A stretch of 32,967 nucleotides of DNA. It comes from an uncultured Syntrophaceae bacterium (lineage in GTDB: Bacteria > Desulfobacterota > BSN033 > UBA1163). Within the stretch, counting starts at the first letter, position 1; every line of letters begins with the position of its first letter. A program made the position numbers and the translations under genes. The stretch is taken from assembly GCA_964353925.1 (NCBI GenBank), contig CAYGWV010000036.1:1-32967 (forward strand), in the 5' to 3' direction. The notes under the pieces are model-generated. The model did no database searches. It was given only the letters and a program-made list of their open reading frames with translations, and was not told where the DNA came from. Shown here piece by piece: positions 14,063-29,004 of this stretch.

Positions 14063-14761
14063 ATGATCGGAAAGACCGAGATGGGTCGGCGGAGCTTCTT
14101 AATCTTGGCCGGTGGAGCCATCAGTGCATGGACGCTGTCTAACGATAAGGTGATTGCGCAGGAAACCCGACAGCCGGCAGTAGAATTCAATAAATCGAGT
14201 TATGAAAAGGATGGGAAGATGAAGAACAGATTATTAATAGCTTATGGTAGCCGGTGCGGGTCTACGGGTGGAGTGGCTGAGACGATTGGGCAGGTATTGT
14301 CTGTAGCAGGAGCAGCCGTGGATGTACGCCTTGTGAAGAATGTGGATGATCTCAGTCCTTATCAGAGCGTGATTGTAGGGAGTGCCATTCGTATGGGTAA
14401 GTGGTTGCCCGAGGCTGTGGAGTTCTTAAAGGCACACCAGGACACACTGAGTCGGGTACCTGTGGCTTACTTTACCGTCTGTCTGACCATGAAGGATGAT
14501 ACGGCGGAGAACCGGCGCAAGGCATTGGGTTATCTGGATCCGGTGCGCAAGCAATTTCCACAGGTAAAGCCAGCGGACATTGGTCTCTTTGCAGGGGCGG
14601 TAGACTACAAAAAGCTGTCCTTTGCTTATAGCTTGATATTGAAGGTGAAGGGGGCCCCTGAAGGGGATTTCCGCAATTGGGAGGCCATCCGAACCTGGGC
14701 TACTGGCATCCGCCCGGCGCTGGACGACGGTAAATGGGGTCGGTTCAAGGCAAGTAATTGA
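14063..14761 (+). CDS. Flavodoxin-fold protein (HemG/Flavodoxin_5-like) with twin-arginine signal peptide
   Basis: GRRSFL followed by hydrophobic ILAGGAISAW and VIA-Q; FMN loop YGSRCGST, VGSAIRMG, FAGAVD, GDFRNWEAIRTWA; AAGGAGG RBS before ATG 14063. Confidence 0.85.
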   Translation: MIGKTEMGRRSFLILAGGAISAWTLSNDKVIAQETRQPAVEFNKSSYEKDGKMKNRLLIAYGSRCGSTGGVAETIGQVLSVAGAAVDVRLVKNVDDLSPYQSVIVGSAIRMGKWLPEAVEFLKAHQDTLSRVPVAYFTVCLTMKDDTAENRRKALGYLDPVRKQFPQVKPADIGLFAGAVDYKKLSFAYSLILKVKGAPEGDFRNWEAIRTWATGIRPALDDGKWGRFKASN

Positions 14762-16309: not shown

Positions 16310-17104
16310 CTATTCGCCTATTATGATTTGAATCGGATCTCCTCTCTTTGCCTTCAGCATCTTTTGGGCATTCCCTTCTCTCACAGAGATTTCGAGAAAA
16401 CCACCACTCCCCAGAAGAGCAATCGGCTCGTCCTTCTTCCCTTCCCAGTATCCCTTCTTCAAGCCACGGATGGTCTTTCTCCTTGCCCGGATGACAAAAG
16501 GACGCCCTTGAATAAACCGAAAAAGCTTTCCTTCATCGATGTTGCTGACAAGGTTTCCGAAGGTATCGACGTGGAGAATCTCTCCCAATAACTTCCCTTC
16601 TTTGATGAAGGGTCCTTCAAATCCTAACCATTCCAATGAGTCGATCTTATGCCCGAGGGCATTCGGCTTGATACCCAGCGAGAGATGCGCAGCCACCGGA
16701 GCAAAGATGTCTCTTCCATGAAACGTCGTGCTGACTTTTGAAAGATGATATTTCTGTTTATCAAGCGCTATTATCTGTTTCACGCTTTCCTTCTGGGTAA
16801 TCATTGTGAAAAGGCCATTGTCAGGGCCGATGAAACAGTAATTTTGGGTTACGAGAAGAAGAGGCTTCCTTGCCCCCCCTACCCCCGGATCCACCACGGA
16901 GAGATGGATTGTTCCTTTTGGAAAATAGGAATAGGCATTGGCTAGTATAAAGGCTCCTTCTCGAATATCATGTGGGCTTACCTGGTGGGTAATATCGATG
17001 AGGAGACACCGGGGGTTGATATTCAAAATCACGCCCTTCATCGACGCCACATAATGGTCTTTTGTGCCAAAATCGGTGAGCAGAGTGATGACAAGCTTCC
17101 TCAT
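16310..17104 (-). CDS. SAM hydroxide adenosyltransferase / SAM hydrolase (DUF62; chlorinase-fluorinase superfamily)
   Basis: ITLLTDFG..D.YV..MKG, VVDPGVGGAR, GPDNG, STTFHGRDIFAP, DTFGN, LEISV; Asp-Arg-His hydrolase triad present. Confidence 0.92.
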   Translation of the reverse strand: MRKLVITLLTDFGTKDHYVASMKGVILNINPRCLLIDITHQVSPHDIREGAFILANAYSYFPKGTIHLSVVDPGVGGARKPLLLVTQNYCFIGPDNGLFTMITQKESVKQIIALDKQKYHLSKVSTTFHGRDIFAPVAAHLSLGIKPNALGHKIDSLEWLGFEGPFIKEGKLLGEILHVDTFGNLVSNIDEGKLFRFIQGRPFVIRARRKTIRGLKKGYWEGKKDEPIALLGSGGFLEISVREGNAQKMLKAKRGDPIQIIIGE

Positions 17105-18228
17105 CAGCCCTCTTTGGAGTTCCGGGTTCGGTAGGGAACGCCTGCCTCTCTGGTAGGTAGGGTTTGAAACCGTTCCGTAAAGGAGTTTGGAGTTGCAAAC
17201 AACGTTTTCAAATTCTTCCGAAAAGGCTTCCGAATAATCCCTTTCTCGGTGATGATGCCATGGATGAGGGAGTGGGGAGTCACATCAAAAGCGGGATTAA
17301 AGGCTTTCACGCCTTTGGGAGCGATGGGGTACCCATGAAAATGGGTGACTTCTTCAATATTTCTCTCCTCAATCGGTATCTCTTCTCCGGAGACTAACGA
17401 GAGGTCGAGAGTGGAGGTCGGGGCAGCCACATAAAAAGGAATACCATGAGATTTTGAGAGAACAGCAAGTCCGTAGGTCCCAATTTTATTGGCTGTATCT
17501 CCATTTCCTGCAATCCTATCCGCACCAACCAAAACGAGATGGACCTCACCTTTTTTCATCAGCCAACCTGCCATGTTGTCTGTAATCACGGTAACAGGTA
17601 TCTTTTCCTGGATCAGTTCCCAAGCCGTCAGCCTGGCCCCCTGAAGCTGGGGCCGTGTCTCATCTGCAAAGACATGAAACCTTTTTCCTTGAGCTCTGGC
17701 CGCATAAATCACTCCCAGCGCCGTTCCGTATCCAGCTGTGGCTAATGCCCCGGCATTGCAATGAGTAAGGATTCCGTCCCCCTCTTTGATCAATTTCTTC
17801 CCGTACTTTCCGATTTTGCGGTTCACTTCAATATCGGTTTCAAGGATTTGAAGGGCCTCTCGCACCAACCTCCTCTTGGTCTCCTCGACTCCATCGCTTT
17901 CAACGCGTTCCAACATCTTTTCCATACGATCCACGGCCCAAAAGAGATTCACTGCCGTAGGCCTGGTCTCTCTCATCTCCCGGCATACCTTTTCAACAGC
18001 TTTAGCAAAAACCCGGGGATACCTGGACCAATTTTTCTTGGCCCCGAGGGCAATCCCCATAGCAGCCGCTACCCCGATAGCAGGTGCTCCGCGGATGGCC
18101 ATGGTTCGAATGGCTTCCGCCACAGAAGAAGCATTCCGGCAATCCAGGTAGTGAACCTCCTGGGGGAGCTTCCTTTGATCCAGCATTCTTACCCGGTCAC
18201 CTTTCCATTCTATGGTTTTGAATTTCAT
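17104..18228 (-). CDS. mtnA: S-methyl-5-thioribose-1-phosphate isomerase
   Basis: LDQRKLP, IRGAPAIG, RPTAVNL, THCNAGALAT, DETRPQLQGARLT, GADRI, NKIGT, NPAFDVTP; stop overlaps DUF62 start (TGATG). Confidence 0.96.
   Translation of the reverse strand: MKFKTIEWKGDRVRMLDQRKLPQEVHYLDCRNASSVAEAIRTMAIRGAPAIGVAAAMGIALGAKKNWSRYPRVFAKAVEKVCREMRETRPTAVNLFWAVDRMEKMLERVESDGVEETKRRLVREALQILETDIEVNRKIGKYGKKLIKEGDGILTHCNAGALATAGYGTALGVIYAARAQGKRFHVFADETRPQLQGARLTAWELIQEKIPVTVITDNMAGWLMKKGEVHLVLVGADRIAGNGDTANKIGTYGLAVLSKSHGIPFYVAAPTSTLDLSLVSGEEIPIEERNIEEVTHFHGYPIAPKGVKAFNPAFDVTPHSLIHGIITEKGIIRKPFRKNLKTLFATPNSFTERFQTLPTREAGVPYRTRNSKEG
17131..17179. repeat. GTAG-type REP palindrome with nested 21-nt CCTGCC...GGTAGG insert, inside the mtnA 3' end
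   Basis: GTAGGGAACG[CCTGCCTCTCTGGTAGGTAGG]GTTTGAAACCGTTCCGTA. Confidence 0.7.
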
Positions 18229-26370: not shown

Positions 26371-27426
26371 TCAGTTTGATCGGCGGTGACGGTAAAAGTT
26401 TCTGAGTGCTATGGACTGAGGGTCGAGGTTGGTTAATCCATATTTTTCGGCCGAGTCCATTGCTTCTAAAAATTCCTGTGCAGTAATTCCACGAGCGATC
26501 TCTGGATAATCATAAGCCTTATATTCAACACGATATTGAGCCATAATATTTACATAAGTGGATTTGGGAAGGGTTTCCGCCATCCATTTGACGAATTTCT
26601 CTGTTCCGGCCACGCGATTGGGCATCACCAAATGCCGGATGATTACTCCGCGAATAGCAATTCCCCGTTTATCCAGTTTGAGCACTCCCACCTGCCGATG
26701 CATTTCAACGATGGCTTTCTTTGTCACTTCGGGATAATCGGAAGCCCCGGCTGAATATTTTGCCGCTTTTTCACCATCCATGTACTTCATATCTGGCTTG
26801 TAGATATCTACAATGCCTTCCAACATTTTCAGTATCTCCAGAGGCTCGTATCCGCTCGTGTTATACATTAAAGGCAAATGGAGCCCTTTCTTTAAGGCAA
26901 TCCGTGTGGCATTGAGGATATTGGGCATGACATGGGTGGGTGTGACGAGGTTGATGTTATGGCAACCCATCTTCTGGAGATGAAGCATCCTGTCAGCTAG
27001 GTCTTCGTCTTGAACCTCTTTCCCCTTTCCCTCATGGGCAATAGGCCAGTTCTGGCAGAAGACGCACCGAAGATTGCAGTTGGAGAAGAAGATGGTGCCA
27101 GATCCTTTCTCACCCACCAAAGACATTTCTTCGCCAAAATGGGGGTGGTAGCTAAAAATTACGGGTTTGACCGGAGCCTGACAGAATCCCTTTTCTCCCT
27201 TTTGCCGATTCACACCACACTTCCTTGGACAGAGCTGACAGTTTTCGAAGATGGCATAGGCCTGTTTAATCCTTTGAGCCAATTTACCTTCCATCTCCAG
27301 TTTCTCATAGGCCGGAATCCATCGAATCTCGTTTCTTTGTCCGGCATGAAACAGAACAGGAGAAAGGAGCAATGAACTCCCCAAGAATAGAGAATGCTTC
27401 ATGAAGTGGCGACGTGTAAACTTCAT
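26371..27426 (-). CDS. Radical SAM protein, PflX-like, with twin-arginine signal peptide
   Basis: TRRHFMK + hydrophobic h-region; N-terminal CQLCPRKC..GFC; HFGEE, GSGTIFF; CNLRCVFC; HNINLVTPTH, RHLVMPN, NIMAQY. Confidence 0.9.
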   Translation of the reverse strand: MKFTRRHFMKHSLFLGSSLLLSPVLFHAGQRNEIRWIPAYEKLEMEGKLAQRIKQAYAIFENCQLCPRKCGVNRQKGEKGFCQAPVKPVIFSYHPHFGEEMSLVGEKGSGTIFFSNCNLRCVFCQNWPIAHEGKGKEVQDEDLADRMLHLQKMGCHNINLVTPTHVMPNILNATRIALKKGLHLPLMYNTSGYEPLEILKMLEGIVDIYKPDMKYMDGEKAAKYSAGASDYPEVTKKAIVEMHRQVGVLKLDKRGIAIRGVIIRHLVMPNRVAGTEKFVKWMAETLPKSTYVNIMAQYRVEYKAYDYPEIARGITAQEFLEAMDSAEKYGLTNLDPQSIALRNFYRHRRSN

Positions 27427-27454
27427 ATGGAGTATTCCAATGCTTACAGTAACG

Positions 27455-27578
27455 ATATTACTCCTGTACGGAACCCTTGTAAAGATATCTCTGCTCTTCG
27501 TTTCTCTCTCCCAGGAGACCGCTAGGCAAGCATAAGAAAGAGAGAGCTATTGACTACTGAGTTGGATCCGATTAATTT
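27455..27578. promoter_or_regulatory. Divergent pair of putative sigma70 promoters for the two radical SAM genes
   Basis: Minus: TTTACA-17-TAATAT (27455-27483); plus: TTGACT-17-TAATTT (27550-27578). Confidence 0.5.
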
Positions 27579-27622
27579 AATAGCATGAATGTCTGACCTT
27601 CGGTCTGACAGGGAAATAGACG

Positions 27623-28810
27623 ATGAATAAACCAAGCAATAACCAACTTTTGTTACGACATGAAATAACCTCCGATCCTGGTCTGACGAAGCGGGAGTTT
27701 CTGAAGTTCTGTGGTGCGAGCTTTTGCGTCTTCTCGTCTGCATATCTCATCGGCTACCCGGAAACCTCACGCGCACAAGCGGCCAAGAAGGGGCTCATAA
27801 AAACAAAACTATCTCCCTTTTTCTCTTCGCTCGAGGGAGGAGAAATCCAGTGTGAACTGTGCCCTCACCGTTGTCGTGTAGCCAAGGGAAAAAGGGGAAT
27901 TTGCAGGGTGCGGGAAAACCGCGATGGGAGATATTACAGCCTGGTCTATGGAAATCCTTGCGCGGTTCATCCAGACCCCATTGAAAAGAAACCCTTCTTC
28001 CACGTCCTTCCTGGCACGATTTCTTACTCCCTCGCAACAGTGGGATGCAATTTCCAGTGTAAGTTTTGTCAGAATTGGGAAATCTCGCAGGCATCTCCGG
28101 AGGATGTTTACAGCAAGGAATTTTCACCCGAGATGGTTGTGAGGGAGGCCAAAGAGATAAGAGCCCGTTCTGTCGCCTATACTTATGTGGAACCAACCAT
28201 CTTTTATGAATATATGTTAGACATCGGTACTCTTGTGAAGAAGTCAGGACTTCTAAATGTCTACCACTCCAATGGCTTTATCAATCCGGATCCTCTCAAA
28301 AATCTATGTAAAGTGTTAGATGCGGCTAATATCGATTTAAAGGGATTTACAGAAAATTTTTATCACGAACTGTGTAGTGGCGAACTCACCCCTGTTCTTG
28401 AAACATTGAAGACGCTGAAAAAGGAAAAAATCCACCTGGAGATCACAAACCTCATCATCCCTACAAAAAATGATGACCTGTCTGTGTTAAAAGAGATGTG
28501 CCTCTGGATAAAAAAAGAATTGGGAGCAGATACTCCGATCCATTTCTCTCGATTCTATCCTCTTTACAAACTCAAGAGCCTTCCTCCGACCCCGGTTTCA
28601 ACGCTTGACAAAGCACGGGAGGCAGCTTTATCTGCGGGCCTTGAATTTGTTTATGTCGGAAACATCCCAGGGCACGCAAGCGAAAATACTTTTTGTCCAA
28701 AATGCAAGAAGAGGATCATCCAGCGGACTGGGTATATGGTTGGAGAGATCAACATGAAGGATGGAAAGTGCAGGTACTGCGGAAAACCTATCCCTGGCAT
28801 CTGGGCGTAA
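27623..28810 (+). CDS. amrS: AmmeMemoRadiSam-system radical SAM enzyme with Tat-like (KR) signal peptide
   Basis: TKREFLK + h-region + SRA/AQA; CELCPHRC..GIC; DPIEKKPFFH; CNFQCKFCQNWEISQ; AYTY.EP, ANIDLK, HFSRFYP, YVGN, C-terminal CPKC...CRYC. Confidence 0.92.
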   Translation: MNKPSNNQLLLRHEITSDPGLTKREFLKFCGASFCVFSSAYLIGYPETSRAQAAKKGLIKTKLSPFFSSLEGGEIQCELCPHRCRVAKGKRGICRVRENRDGRYYSLVYGNPCAVHPDPIEKKPFFHVLPGTISYSLATVGCNFQCKFCQNWEISQASPEDVYSKEFSPEMVVREAKEIRARSVAYTYVEPTIFYEYMLDIGTLVKKSGLLNVYHSNGFINPDPLKNLCKVLDAANIDLKGFTENFYHELCSGELTPVLETLKTLKKEKIHLEITNLIIPTKNDDLSVLKEMCLWIKKELGADTPIHFSRFYPLYKLKSLPPTPVSTLDKAREAALSAGLEFVYVGNIPGHASENTFCPKCKKRIIQRTGYMVGEINMKDGKCRYCGKPIPGIWA

Positions 28811-28824
28811 GGCAAAAATCTCAA

Positions 28825-29004
28825 ATGGAGAATAAATTACCCTTTTCCTGCCCGGTCTGTGGTCGAAAAAAGGAATACCTTGTGACGGAGTTGGTAGAAG
28901 GGGCAGTCCTCACCTGTCCCTTTTGTAAGCTCACCGTCACTCTCCACGGCCACATGTGGCAGGACGTTCAAAAAGAAATCAAGAAATTAGAAGAAAAGAG
29001 CTGA
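28825..29004 (+). CDS. Small zinc-ribbon protein (59 aa)
   Basis: CPVC...CPFC pair; ATG 14 nt after the amrS stop. Confidence 0.75.
   Translation: MENKLPFSCPVCGRKKEYLVTELVEGAVLTCPFCKLTVTLHGHMWQDVQKEIKKLEEKS

Follow-up and report, generated by a model that had tools for sequence, protein, structure and literature searches.

Divergent radical SAM genes with predicted twin-arginine export signals in an uncultured Syntrophaceae bacterium

The stretch of DNA analysed here, termed the window, consists of 32,967 nucleotides from an uncultured Syntrophaceae bacterium (contig CAYGWV010000036.1 of assembly GCA_964353925.1). Of interest is a pair of genes for radical S-adenosylmethionine (SAM) enzymes, both of which begin with a leader resembling the signals for twin-arginine translocation (Tat). 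The first-pass annotation, made from the letters alone, had claimed such a divergent pair, and the two open reading frames (ORFs) are found head to head, 196 bp apart by ORF coordinates (intergenic region 27427-27622). The PflX-like gene lies on the minus strand (26371-27426; 351 amino acids (aa), ATG start) and the AmrS-like gene on the plus strand (27623-28810; 395 aa, ATG start). PF04055 scores of 47.3 bits for the PflX-like and 73.2 bits for the AmrS-like protein, against a cut-off of 29.5, place both in the radical SAM superfamily. The two are distant paralogues, with 24% identity over 229 residues (E 5e-10).

What kind of radical SAM enzymes are these? The AmrS-like protein scores 379.2 bits with TIGR04337 (cut-off 220). 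Profile positions 3-333 align with residues 66-394, and as the profile begins only at residue 66, the protein carries about 65 extra N-terminal residues. With 21.6 bits the PflX-like protein is no TIGR04337 member, and it reaches the cut-off of no NCBIfam model; the name PflX-like (COG1313 for its signal-less relatives) follows the first-pass annotation, and the libraries searched hold no curated model for it. Its AlphaFold model has a predicted local distance difference test (pLDDT) value of 90.5 and a predicted template-modelling (TM) score of 0.86, with residues 19-32 below pLDDT 50. The best match of the model in the PDB is the pyruvate formate-lyase (PFL) activating enzyme 3cb8 (E 1.3e-09, TM 0.68 on the target), and a PFL activating enzyme is also the only PDB sequence match of the AmrS-like protein (E 4.4e-05). 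The two window proteins score 17.6 and 48.8 bits with TIGR02493 (cut-off 231.75) and 15.6 and 38.5 bits with TIGR02494 (cut-off 174.35), i.e. they belong to neither family, and no glycyl-radical enzyme gene is present among the scanned neighbours of the pair. The likeness to glycyl-radical activases, as far as the model tells, is at the level of the fold only.

Two cysteine motifs had been described as common to both proteins, and both are present and invariant in alignments of 45 PflX sequences (56-85% identity) and 47 AmrS sequences. The N-terminal four-Cys motif has the spacing C63-x2-C66-x3-C70...G80-x-C82 in PflX (27181-27240, minus strand) and C77-x2-C80-x3-C84...G92-x-C94 in AmrS (27851-27904, plus strand), where the exported clade and the canonical clade both keep it (see below). 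The radical SAM cluster motif is C117-x3-C121-x2-C124-Q-N-W in PflX (27046-27078, minus strand; the Cys residues, Q125 and N126 invariant) and C142-x3-C146-x2-C149-Q-N-W in AmrS (28046-28078, plus strand; 100% in both clades). AmrS has a further, C-terminal motif, C358, C361, C383 and C386 (28694-28780, plus strand), which is invariant in the alignment and reaches at least 95% conservation in each of the two clades. The canonical AmrS clade has 55 columns with conservation of at least 90%; the exported clade keeps 46 of them, including all 11 Cys (3 radical SAM, 4 N-terminal and 4 C-terminal). This retention argues for catalysis like that of the canonical enzyme. Proteins with several such motifs, if all of them bind clusters, would also be natural Tat clients.

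The N-termini are as had been described. The PflX-like protein starts MKFTRRHFMK, and its leader (residues 1-29; 27340-27426, minus strand) consists of an n-region with T4-R-R-H-F-M-K10 (27397-27417), an h-region of 16 uncharged residues, H11-F26, and a c-region H-A-G. The AmrS-like leader (residues 1-53; 27623-27781, plus strand) has T22-K-R-E-F-L-K28 (27686-27706), 17 uncharged residues, F29-Y45, and then A51-Q52-A53. T-R-R-H-F-M-K conforms to the consensus S/T-R-R-x-F-L-K, and T-K-R-E-F-L-K is a KR variant of it; A-Q-A makes a good A-x-A-type cleavage site, F-H-A-G a weak one. Might the leaders be products of wrongly called starts? For AmrS this had been denied, and with respect to canonical start codons the denial holds. 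Among the first 95 codons the only in-frame ATG, GTG or TTG are codons 1 (ATG) and 10 (TTG), both of which precede T22KREFLK28; the next is a GTG at codon 96, past C77-C94, and ATG1 is preceded by a stop one codon upstream. The PflX frame has alternative starts at ATG9, TTG15, TTG19 and ATG45. TIGR01409, a curated Tat-signal model, gives matches with E <= 1 in 16 of the 45 aligned members of the PflX family (the best with 7.4e-05) and is absent from the 25 families listed for the AmrS alignment.

Leader conservation was followed in two sets of homologues. The close sets hold the 120 closest listed homologues of each protein (79-100% identity), from Thermodesulfobacteriota/Syntrophaceae metagenome-assembled genomes. 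The wide set holds 80 loci at 55-85% identity, from a scan of one genome per species, and comes from Thermodesulfobacteriota, Acidobacteriota, Spirochaetota, Planctomycetota, Kiritimatiellae, Chloroflexota, Bacillota, Gemmatimonadota, Trueperaceae, Latescibacterota, Aminicenantes and others. Twin arginines followed by an uncharged run are found in 107 of the 120 close PflX homologues; ten of the remaining 13 are called from Met9 (343 aa), two are N-terminally truncated and one has T-R-Y. The AmrS leader is kept in 119 of 120 (112 KR, 6 RR, 1 RK). In the wide set 78 PflX copies and 62 neighbouring AmrS copies could be judged; a Tat-type leader is present in 75 of the former and in 60 of the latter (35 RR, 24 KR, 1 RK). 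The N-terminal extensions are thus conserved far beyond close relatives, and with RR and KR spread in this way over the 80 loci, the KR of the window's lineage is a derived form of RR.

It is the signal that is kept and not the sequence: RR or KR, the uncharged run and the small-residue end stay constant while the h-region varies. R5 never varies in the PflX alignment, and conservation is at least 90% at R6 and F8, as it is at R24 in the AmrS alignment. The end of the leader varies with envelope type. Thermodesulfobacteriota copies have A-x-A-like sites. Those from Clostridia, Syntrophomonadaceae, Anaerolineae and Limnocylindrales have L-x-[AG]-C, with a lipobox-like Cys, followed by a linker rich in P, E or T, and several Spirochaetota and Planctomycetota leaders end likewise; this would be the usual look of a lipoprotein.

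Do the leader-bearing proteins also form clades, as was proposed? For AmrS, the best 150 of 8171 relatives, from a search of 1.84 billion cluster representatives, were combined with the two AmrS proteins of the window's own genome (1.76 Mb, about 69% complete); minus 4 partial sequences, this left 148 rows, of which 32 were scored as Tat-type, 5 as transmembrane/general secretory (Sec) type and 12 as N-terminally fused. In the FastTree tree all 32 Tat-type, all 5 transmembrane/Sec-type and 11 of the 12 fused proteins fall among 62 rows on one side. On the opposite side 85 of 86 rows are without a signal, among them the second AmrS of the window's genome, a signal-less protein of 337 aa on contig C145. 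The Tat label requires 13 changes on the tree, compared with a mean of 29.2 when shuffled (0 of 500 shuffles as low). Several rows without a signal on the exported side are N-truncated fragments.

PflX gives a similar picture. Relatives occur in 172 of the 201 genomes of a phylum sample; most are signal-less, about 310-325 aa long and match from residue ~36, with approximately 50-56% identity over residues 36-340, and they often share a genome with a leader-bearing copy. Twenty intermediate and signal-less relatives were fetched for comparison (one, L161, gave no ORF and was dropped). All nine intermediates (55-60% identity, L148-L156) carry RR or KR leaders, and 10 of the other 11 start directly at a P-A-Y motif. 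Signal-less paralogues start exactly where the leader ends, in PflX at W-x-P-A-Y. An IQ-TREE quick tree splits 54 leader-bearing from 10 signal-less PflX proteins by one branch, with a Shimodaira-Hasegawa-like approximate likelihood ratio (SH-aLRT) support of 99. Tat-bearing copies do form clades, by this branch for PflX and by clustering on one tree side for AmrS. On these trees both leader-bearing groups are old, coherent branches beside putative cytoplasmic paralogues.

Genomes of the same family hold 3-5 AmrS paralogues, including tandem AmrS pairs a few bases apart (G011:C11:6823-8951, G156:C42:15874-17981, G053:C24:27926-30036 and G090:C12:3070-5246). In each tandem one copy matches from query residue ~20, in the leader region, and the other from ~57-63 (41 in G090).

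The association of PflX with AmrS is itself conserved. They are neighbours in 66 of the 80 loci, 46 times convergent, 13 times divergent as in the window and 7 times in tandem. Among the 14 loci without an AmrS neighbour, five have PflX flanked on one or both sides by less than 2.1 kb of DNA (L033, L056, L070, L084, L086) and five have about 10 kb on both sides. Structure prediction of the complex of PflX residues 30-351 with AmrS residues 56-395 gave scores of 0.68, 0.69 and 0.21 (median 0.68), and the best of three controls gave 0.01. Of solved complexes 58 of 80 attain the mark used for such scores, and of mismatched pairs 2 of 110, counts that are approximate where, as here, the alignments are one's own. 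Agreement between the runs is at least 5% of contacts, and pLDDT of the partners is at least 87. The predicted interface takes in residues just after both cluster loops, W127-I129 of PflX among them. We know of no solved complex of this kind, and memory on the part of the predictor is an unlikely source of the score. Judged by these models, PflX and AmrS probably work as a heterodimer.

A third gene recurs next to the pair. Of the loci, 31 contain a member of the spermidine-synthase family, in 26 of them at full length (at least 740 aa), in 4 cut by contig ends and in one as an ordinary 280-aa SpeE. With this SpeE excluded, a fused major facilitator superfamily (MFS)/spermidine synthase is counted in 30 of the 80 loci, where it usually overlaps the AmrS start. 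It scores 43-56 bits with NF037959, 'fused MFS/spermidine synthase' (cut-off 40), and 90-97 bits with PF01564. The window's genome has an orthologue, which is unclustered (C29:202-2514). The consensus from alignment-based hydropathy is 7 helices, a 366-residue domain and 6 helices; this replaced a per-sequence helix prediction, which had placed 5-8 helices before the domain. The mean number of K+R is 18.7 in the even loops (11.0 + 7.7) versus 6.1 in the odd short loops (3.7 + 2.4), and from this excess the spermidine-synthase-like domain, of SAM/decarboxy-SAM type, is predicted to face outward. Other candidates for conserved neighbours of the pair were rejected, as the clusters shared by several loci represent local synteny or antisense ORFs.

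The membrane partner comes in two types that are 28-31% identical, one in L039, L053 and the window's own genome and the other in L063, L067 and L073. The L063 type keeps, after the Rossmann motif, a D-x-P-D-P stretch that we take to be catalytic in spermidine synthases; the own-genome type has G-L-S-S-P-x-E-L in this place.

A further set of proteins goes together with AmrS. The first-pass annotation had raised the co-occurrence of Tat-type AmrS with signal-bearing AMMECR1/MEMO1 homologues, and such co-occurrence is seen both in the window's own genome and in the operons inspected elsewhere. The genome has a Memo-AMMECR1 fusion on contig C89 with a Sec-type signal, starting MRTCISLIFLISFSLLTGSIAMA followed by Q. 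The AMMECR1 Pfam model is unmatched in this genome, as the fusion leaves the contig after about 30 residues of the AMMECR1 domain. A strict hydrophobic-run test is passed by 86 of the 120 closest listed homologues of the fusion, and the other 34 are mostly gene calls that start within or after the signal. In the phylum sample a signal-bearing fusion is present in 13 of 13 genomes whose PflX reaches 69% identity or more; a further 10 or so fusions are signal-less. Where Memo/AMMECR1 genes lie beside an AmrS of the exported branch, a signal-like N-terminus was found in 21 of 21 operons inspected, the AmrS being of RR type in 18 and unclear in 3.

Is the pair then no more than the radical SAM component of an AmmeMemoRadiSam operon for export? 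This was rejected: no Memo or AMMECR1 gene lies beside the pair in the window or within the flanks covered at the 80 loci (0/80), and of five distant genomes with the three-gene module described below, one has a signal-like Memo-AMMECR1 fusion. Two loci with Memo/AMMECR1 beside an exported-branch AmrS may be mentioned. One (L117, G105:C18:24500-29500) has separate Memo and AMMECR1 genes, each signal-like, followed by an AmrS with T-R-R-Q-F-L-K. The other (L132, G148:C44:6643-7713) has an exported-branch AmrS with one in-frame TGA and an unreadable N-terminus, beside a signal-bearing Memo-AMMECR1; the TGA may stem from a sequencing error, a broken gene or selenocysteine.

Domain fusions within the exported AmrS branch are of further interest. 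They are found in P0363, P0365, P0378, P0382, P0368, P0380, P0366, P0377 and P0387. Some of these are fused to flavin mononucleotide (FMN)-binding FMN_bind plus NapH-like Fer4_5 and/or DsbD_2 membrane modules, others combine a signal with a beta-propeller or CBM_11, and P0387 combines a signal with Memo and AMMECR1. NapH-like proteins with extracytosolic FMN-binding domains are described as transmembrane electron-transfer modules, in systems whose reactions are stated to be mostly unknown (PMC8238504).

Does the host have the means for export? A TatC gene (PF00902, 165.9 bits) is present on contig C66, with a second, partial copy on C150, and a simple pattern search found TRRxFLK leaders on molybdoenzyme-like ORFs of C48, C53, C134, C146 and C152. 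The window itself also encodes a 232-aa Flavodoxin_5 protein (14063-14761, plus strand; PF12724, 103.3 bits) whose leader, M-G-R-R-S-F-L-I-L-A-G-G, is of Tat type. Radical SAM enzymes on the outside would find a natural reductant in a flavodoxin-like protein that is itself exported. As a regular electron donor this one was ruled out: the phylum sample has it in 15 of 201 genomes, the six genomes of the same family with the pair lack it (0 of 6), and it is absent from all loci collected.

How should these findings be read? Conserved export signals on both enzymes, over many phyla, suggest that radical SAM chemistry takes place also outside the cell membrane. By the trees and leaders, the pair is part of a widespread, putatively exported AmrS/PflX branch that exists alongside ordinary cytoplasmic paralogues. 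A periplasmic or membrane-tethered radical SAM system had been proposed for the window, and leaders, clades and partners support it at the level of sequence, with export itself as a prediction. The consequences named along with it, a supply of SAM outside, export with SAM already bound, or chemistry independent of SAM, are likewise possibilities. A genuine extracytoplasmic function of the pair is, we believe, the likely explanation.

A number of points weigh against it. The PflX leader of the window scores 12.9 bits with TIGR01409, below the cut-off of 16.7, and the AmrS leader is unmatched by this model; the AmrS motif in the window's lineage is KR rather than RR (112 of the 120 closest listed). 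As F-H-A-G is a poor signal-peptidase site, PflX may remain anchored. Radical SAM enzymes need SAM and a low-potential electron donor, both of which are cytoplasmic, and no report of SAM outside the cytoplasm was found in the literature searched. The topology of the membrane partner is a crude estimate from hydropathy and the positive-inside rule, and per-sequence verdicts on its domain, made with inconsistent helix counts, are 15 out, 5 in and 7 unscored. In the trees, the basal AmrS split is weakly supported (FastTree 35 and 80), and the 10 signal-less PflX rows are all from one phylum. Five representatives of the exported AmrS branch have an N-terminal hydrophobic anchor that lacks twin arginines, and the Memo-AMMECR1-AmrS fusion P0387 begins with a Sec-like signal; an Fe-S domain that is exported in the folded state is difficult to reconcile with such plain anchors and Sec-like signals. 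Lastly, a signal-bearing Memo-AMMECR1 is present in one of five distant genomes that have the three-gene module of PflX, AmrS and the membrane partner, so the pair lacks this partner in places.

If the pair does function outside, a scheme can be drawn. Fe-S clusters would be inserted into both enzymes in the cytoplasm, and the folded, cluster-loaded proteins would cross the cytoplasmic membrane via the Tat translocase. AmrS would be cut by signal peptidase after A53 and probably released; PflX would perhaps stay anchored in the window's lineage and be lipid-anchored elsewhere. There, on the outside of the cytoplasmic membrane or in the periplasm, the two would work, probably as a heterodimer. 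Either SAM itself or a cofactor derived from it would reach the outside pre-bound or via a membrane partner, and the membrane spermidine-synthase fusion is the best candidate to bring or hold such a cofactor there. Electrons could come from periplasmic or transmembrane donors, which in the fused relatives would be the NapH/FMN/DsbD-type modules. The substrate would be a cell-envelope molecule, and our guess is an envelope lipid or a polyamine-bearing molecule; this guess draws on the family of the membrane partner and on what the abstract of Burroughs et al. is reported to say (see below). Taken as a whole, that many anaerobic bacteria of at least ten phyla run SAM-dependent radical chemistry outside the cytoplasm, with a Tat-exported heterodimer, a 13-helix cofactor exporter with an outward SAM/decarboxy-SAM-type domain, periplasmic or transmembrane electrons and a modified envelope product, is a tentative proposal, less likely than not. 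If true, SAM or a derivative would be deliberately delivered across the cytoplasmic membrane.

Could the leaders be real and the enzymes nevertheless stay on the cytoplasmic side, with the Tat-like peptide as a membrane tether or as a chaperone or assembly handle, and with ordinary chemistry at the membrane? The remnant Tat leader of NarG offers a parallel for such a tether or checkpoint. SAM and low-potential reductants are found on that side, the KR variant of AmrS and the sub-threshold TIGR01409 scores would fit a degenerate signal, and with a polytopic conserved partner, both faces of the membrane are plausible places of work. However, a remnant leader needs neither a signal-peptidase site nor a lipobox-like Cys with linker that depends on the envelope. 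RR is intact in 107 of the 120 closest listed PflX homologues and in 35 of 60 AmrS orthologues, the partners bear Sec-type signals that are sensible only outside, and a positive N-terminus with one hydrophobic helix would, by the positive-inside rule, leave the remainder of the protein outside. This explanation appears unlikely.

Also improbable, in our judgement, is export of the enzymes with no radical SAM turnover outside, i.e. they would act once inside, on a partner or on each other, and then be exported with it, or serve outside in an Fe-S redox or binding role with SAM fixed or unused. An outside pool of SAM would then not be needed. Some enzymes, e.g. lysine 2,3-aminomutase, regenerate SAM in each cycle, so that one pre-bound SAM could suffice, and the predicted PflX-AmrS interface adjoins both cluster loops. 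A precedent for 'modify inside, act outside' is the HXS defence system, where, according to its abstract, a radical SAM enzyme matures an effector that then acts in the periplasm; the arrangement is different from that of the pair. Set against these points are the canonical residues that AmrS has kept (46 of 55 columns and all Cys), together with the outward spermidine-synthase-like domain and the electron-transfer fusions, which resemble provisions of cofactor and electrons outside. That the leaders come from a wrong choice of start codon, or are N-termini that happen to be hydrophobic, is hardly credible and is refuted as far as sequence allows: ten of the 120 listed PflX homologues are called from Met9 and the window's PflX has in-frame alternatives, but AmrS is without a canonical alternative start, T-R-R-x-F upstream of Met9 is conserved as protein down to 55% identity in many phyla, and signal-less paralogues form a separate branch.

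With an extracytoplasmic function as the preferred reading, how does the pair compare with known systems? The AmrS-like protein is of the same family as canonical AmrS (TIGR04337; partners AmrA = AMMECR1 and AmrB = Memo), with its 379.2 bits, 46 of 55 columns and all 11 Cys, but it differs in the 65-residue extension with the Tat leader, in its separate side of the tree and in having a PflX-like partner instead of AmrA/AmrB; Memo-AMMECR1 genes do accompany many members of its branch. Signal-less PflX-like proteins (COG1313), ~50-56% identical, differ by a start at W/x-P-A-Y without leader and lie on the other side of the branch with 99% support. The PFL activating enzyme (3cb8/3c8f) and other activases share the C-x3-C-x2-C loop with both window proteins, which add the N-terminal four-Cys motif and, in AmrS, also the C-terminal one. 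Glycyl-radical enzyme activases are cytoplasmic. Like the window pair, which is encoded side by side and predicted to bind, F0 synthase, CofG/CofH, consists of two paralogous radical SAM proteins; CofG/CofH are cytoplasmic and their chemistry is known.

Tat-exported Fe-S proteins follow the same logic as the one supposed for the pair, a cofactor-loaded, folded protein with an S/T-R-R-x-F-L-K leader. Examples are hydrogenase small subunits, NrfC/DmsB-type ferredoxins and Rieske proteins, all electron carriers or respiratory subunits. None that we know of is a radical SAM enzyme, a type that also needs SAM. The NapH-like/FMN-binding systems provide modules that are fused to exported-branch AmrS but not to the window's own proteins; the main text of the paper on them has no occurrence of the word 'radical' (PMC8238504).

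The first-pass annotation had called the system undescribed. This stands for the literature searched, where nothing on point was found, and no wider. Neither Tat-tagged nor periplasmic radical SAM enzymes are described in that literature, which excluded Burroughs et al. (2019), and no paper in it treats PflX together with radical SAM. Titles and abstract openings of the AmmeMemoRadiSam papers contain nothing on export. PMC7159879 credits 'Memo-Ammecr1 systems' to Burroughs et al. (2019). That work may bear on novelty. Its abstract (Journal of Biological Chemistry, JBC) is said to connect Memo systems with the modification of isoprenoids or bases. What the present analysis adds is a second enzyme with an export signal, the PflX-like one, a pairing that is conserved and for which binding is predicted, and a module of three genes that includes a putative outward-facing SAM-type domain.

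Radical SAM chemistry is textbook cytoplasmic chemistry, and an export branch conserved across phyla would add a new compartment to it. It would also raise the question, how do SAM and electrons get outside? The AmrS, PflX, Memo and AMMECR1 families, with Memo and AMMECR1 conserved up to humans, would gain a concrete handle in the form of an envelope-located substrate.

With respect to expression, short contigs near-identical to parts of both genes are present in three sediment metatranscriptome runs of one study; one, for example, matches 27134-27381 with one difference. These contigs were set aside as evidence because the transcript start is invisible in them, carry-over of DNA is possible and the RR codons are uncovered in all. 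Downstream of AmrS a 59-aa ORF (28825-29004, plus strand) begins 15 bases past the stop codon and has two C-x2-C pairs; its rubredoxin and zinc-ribbon matches are weak, all under their cut-offs. About 9 kb from the pair, at 16310-18228 on the minus strand, lie genes for a SAM hydroxide adenosyltransferase (PF01887/PF20257) and an IF-2B/MtnA-type isomerase (PF01008), which overlap by one base and whose functions are SAM and methylthio-sugar salvage.

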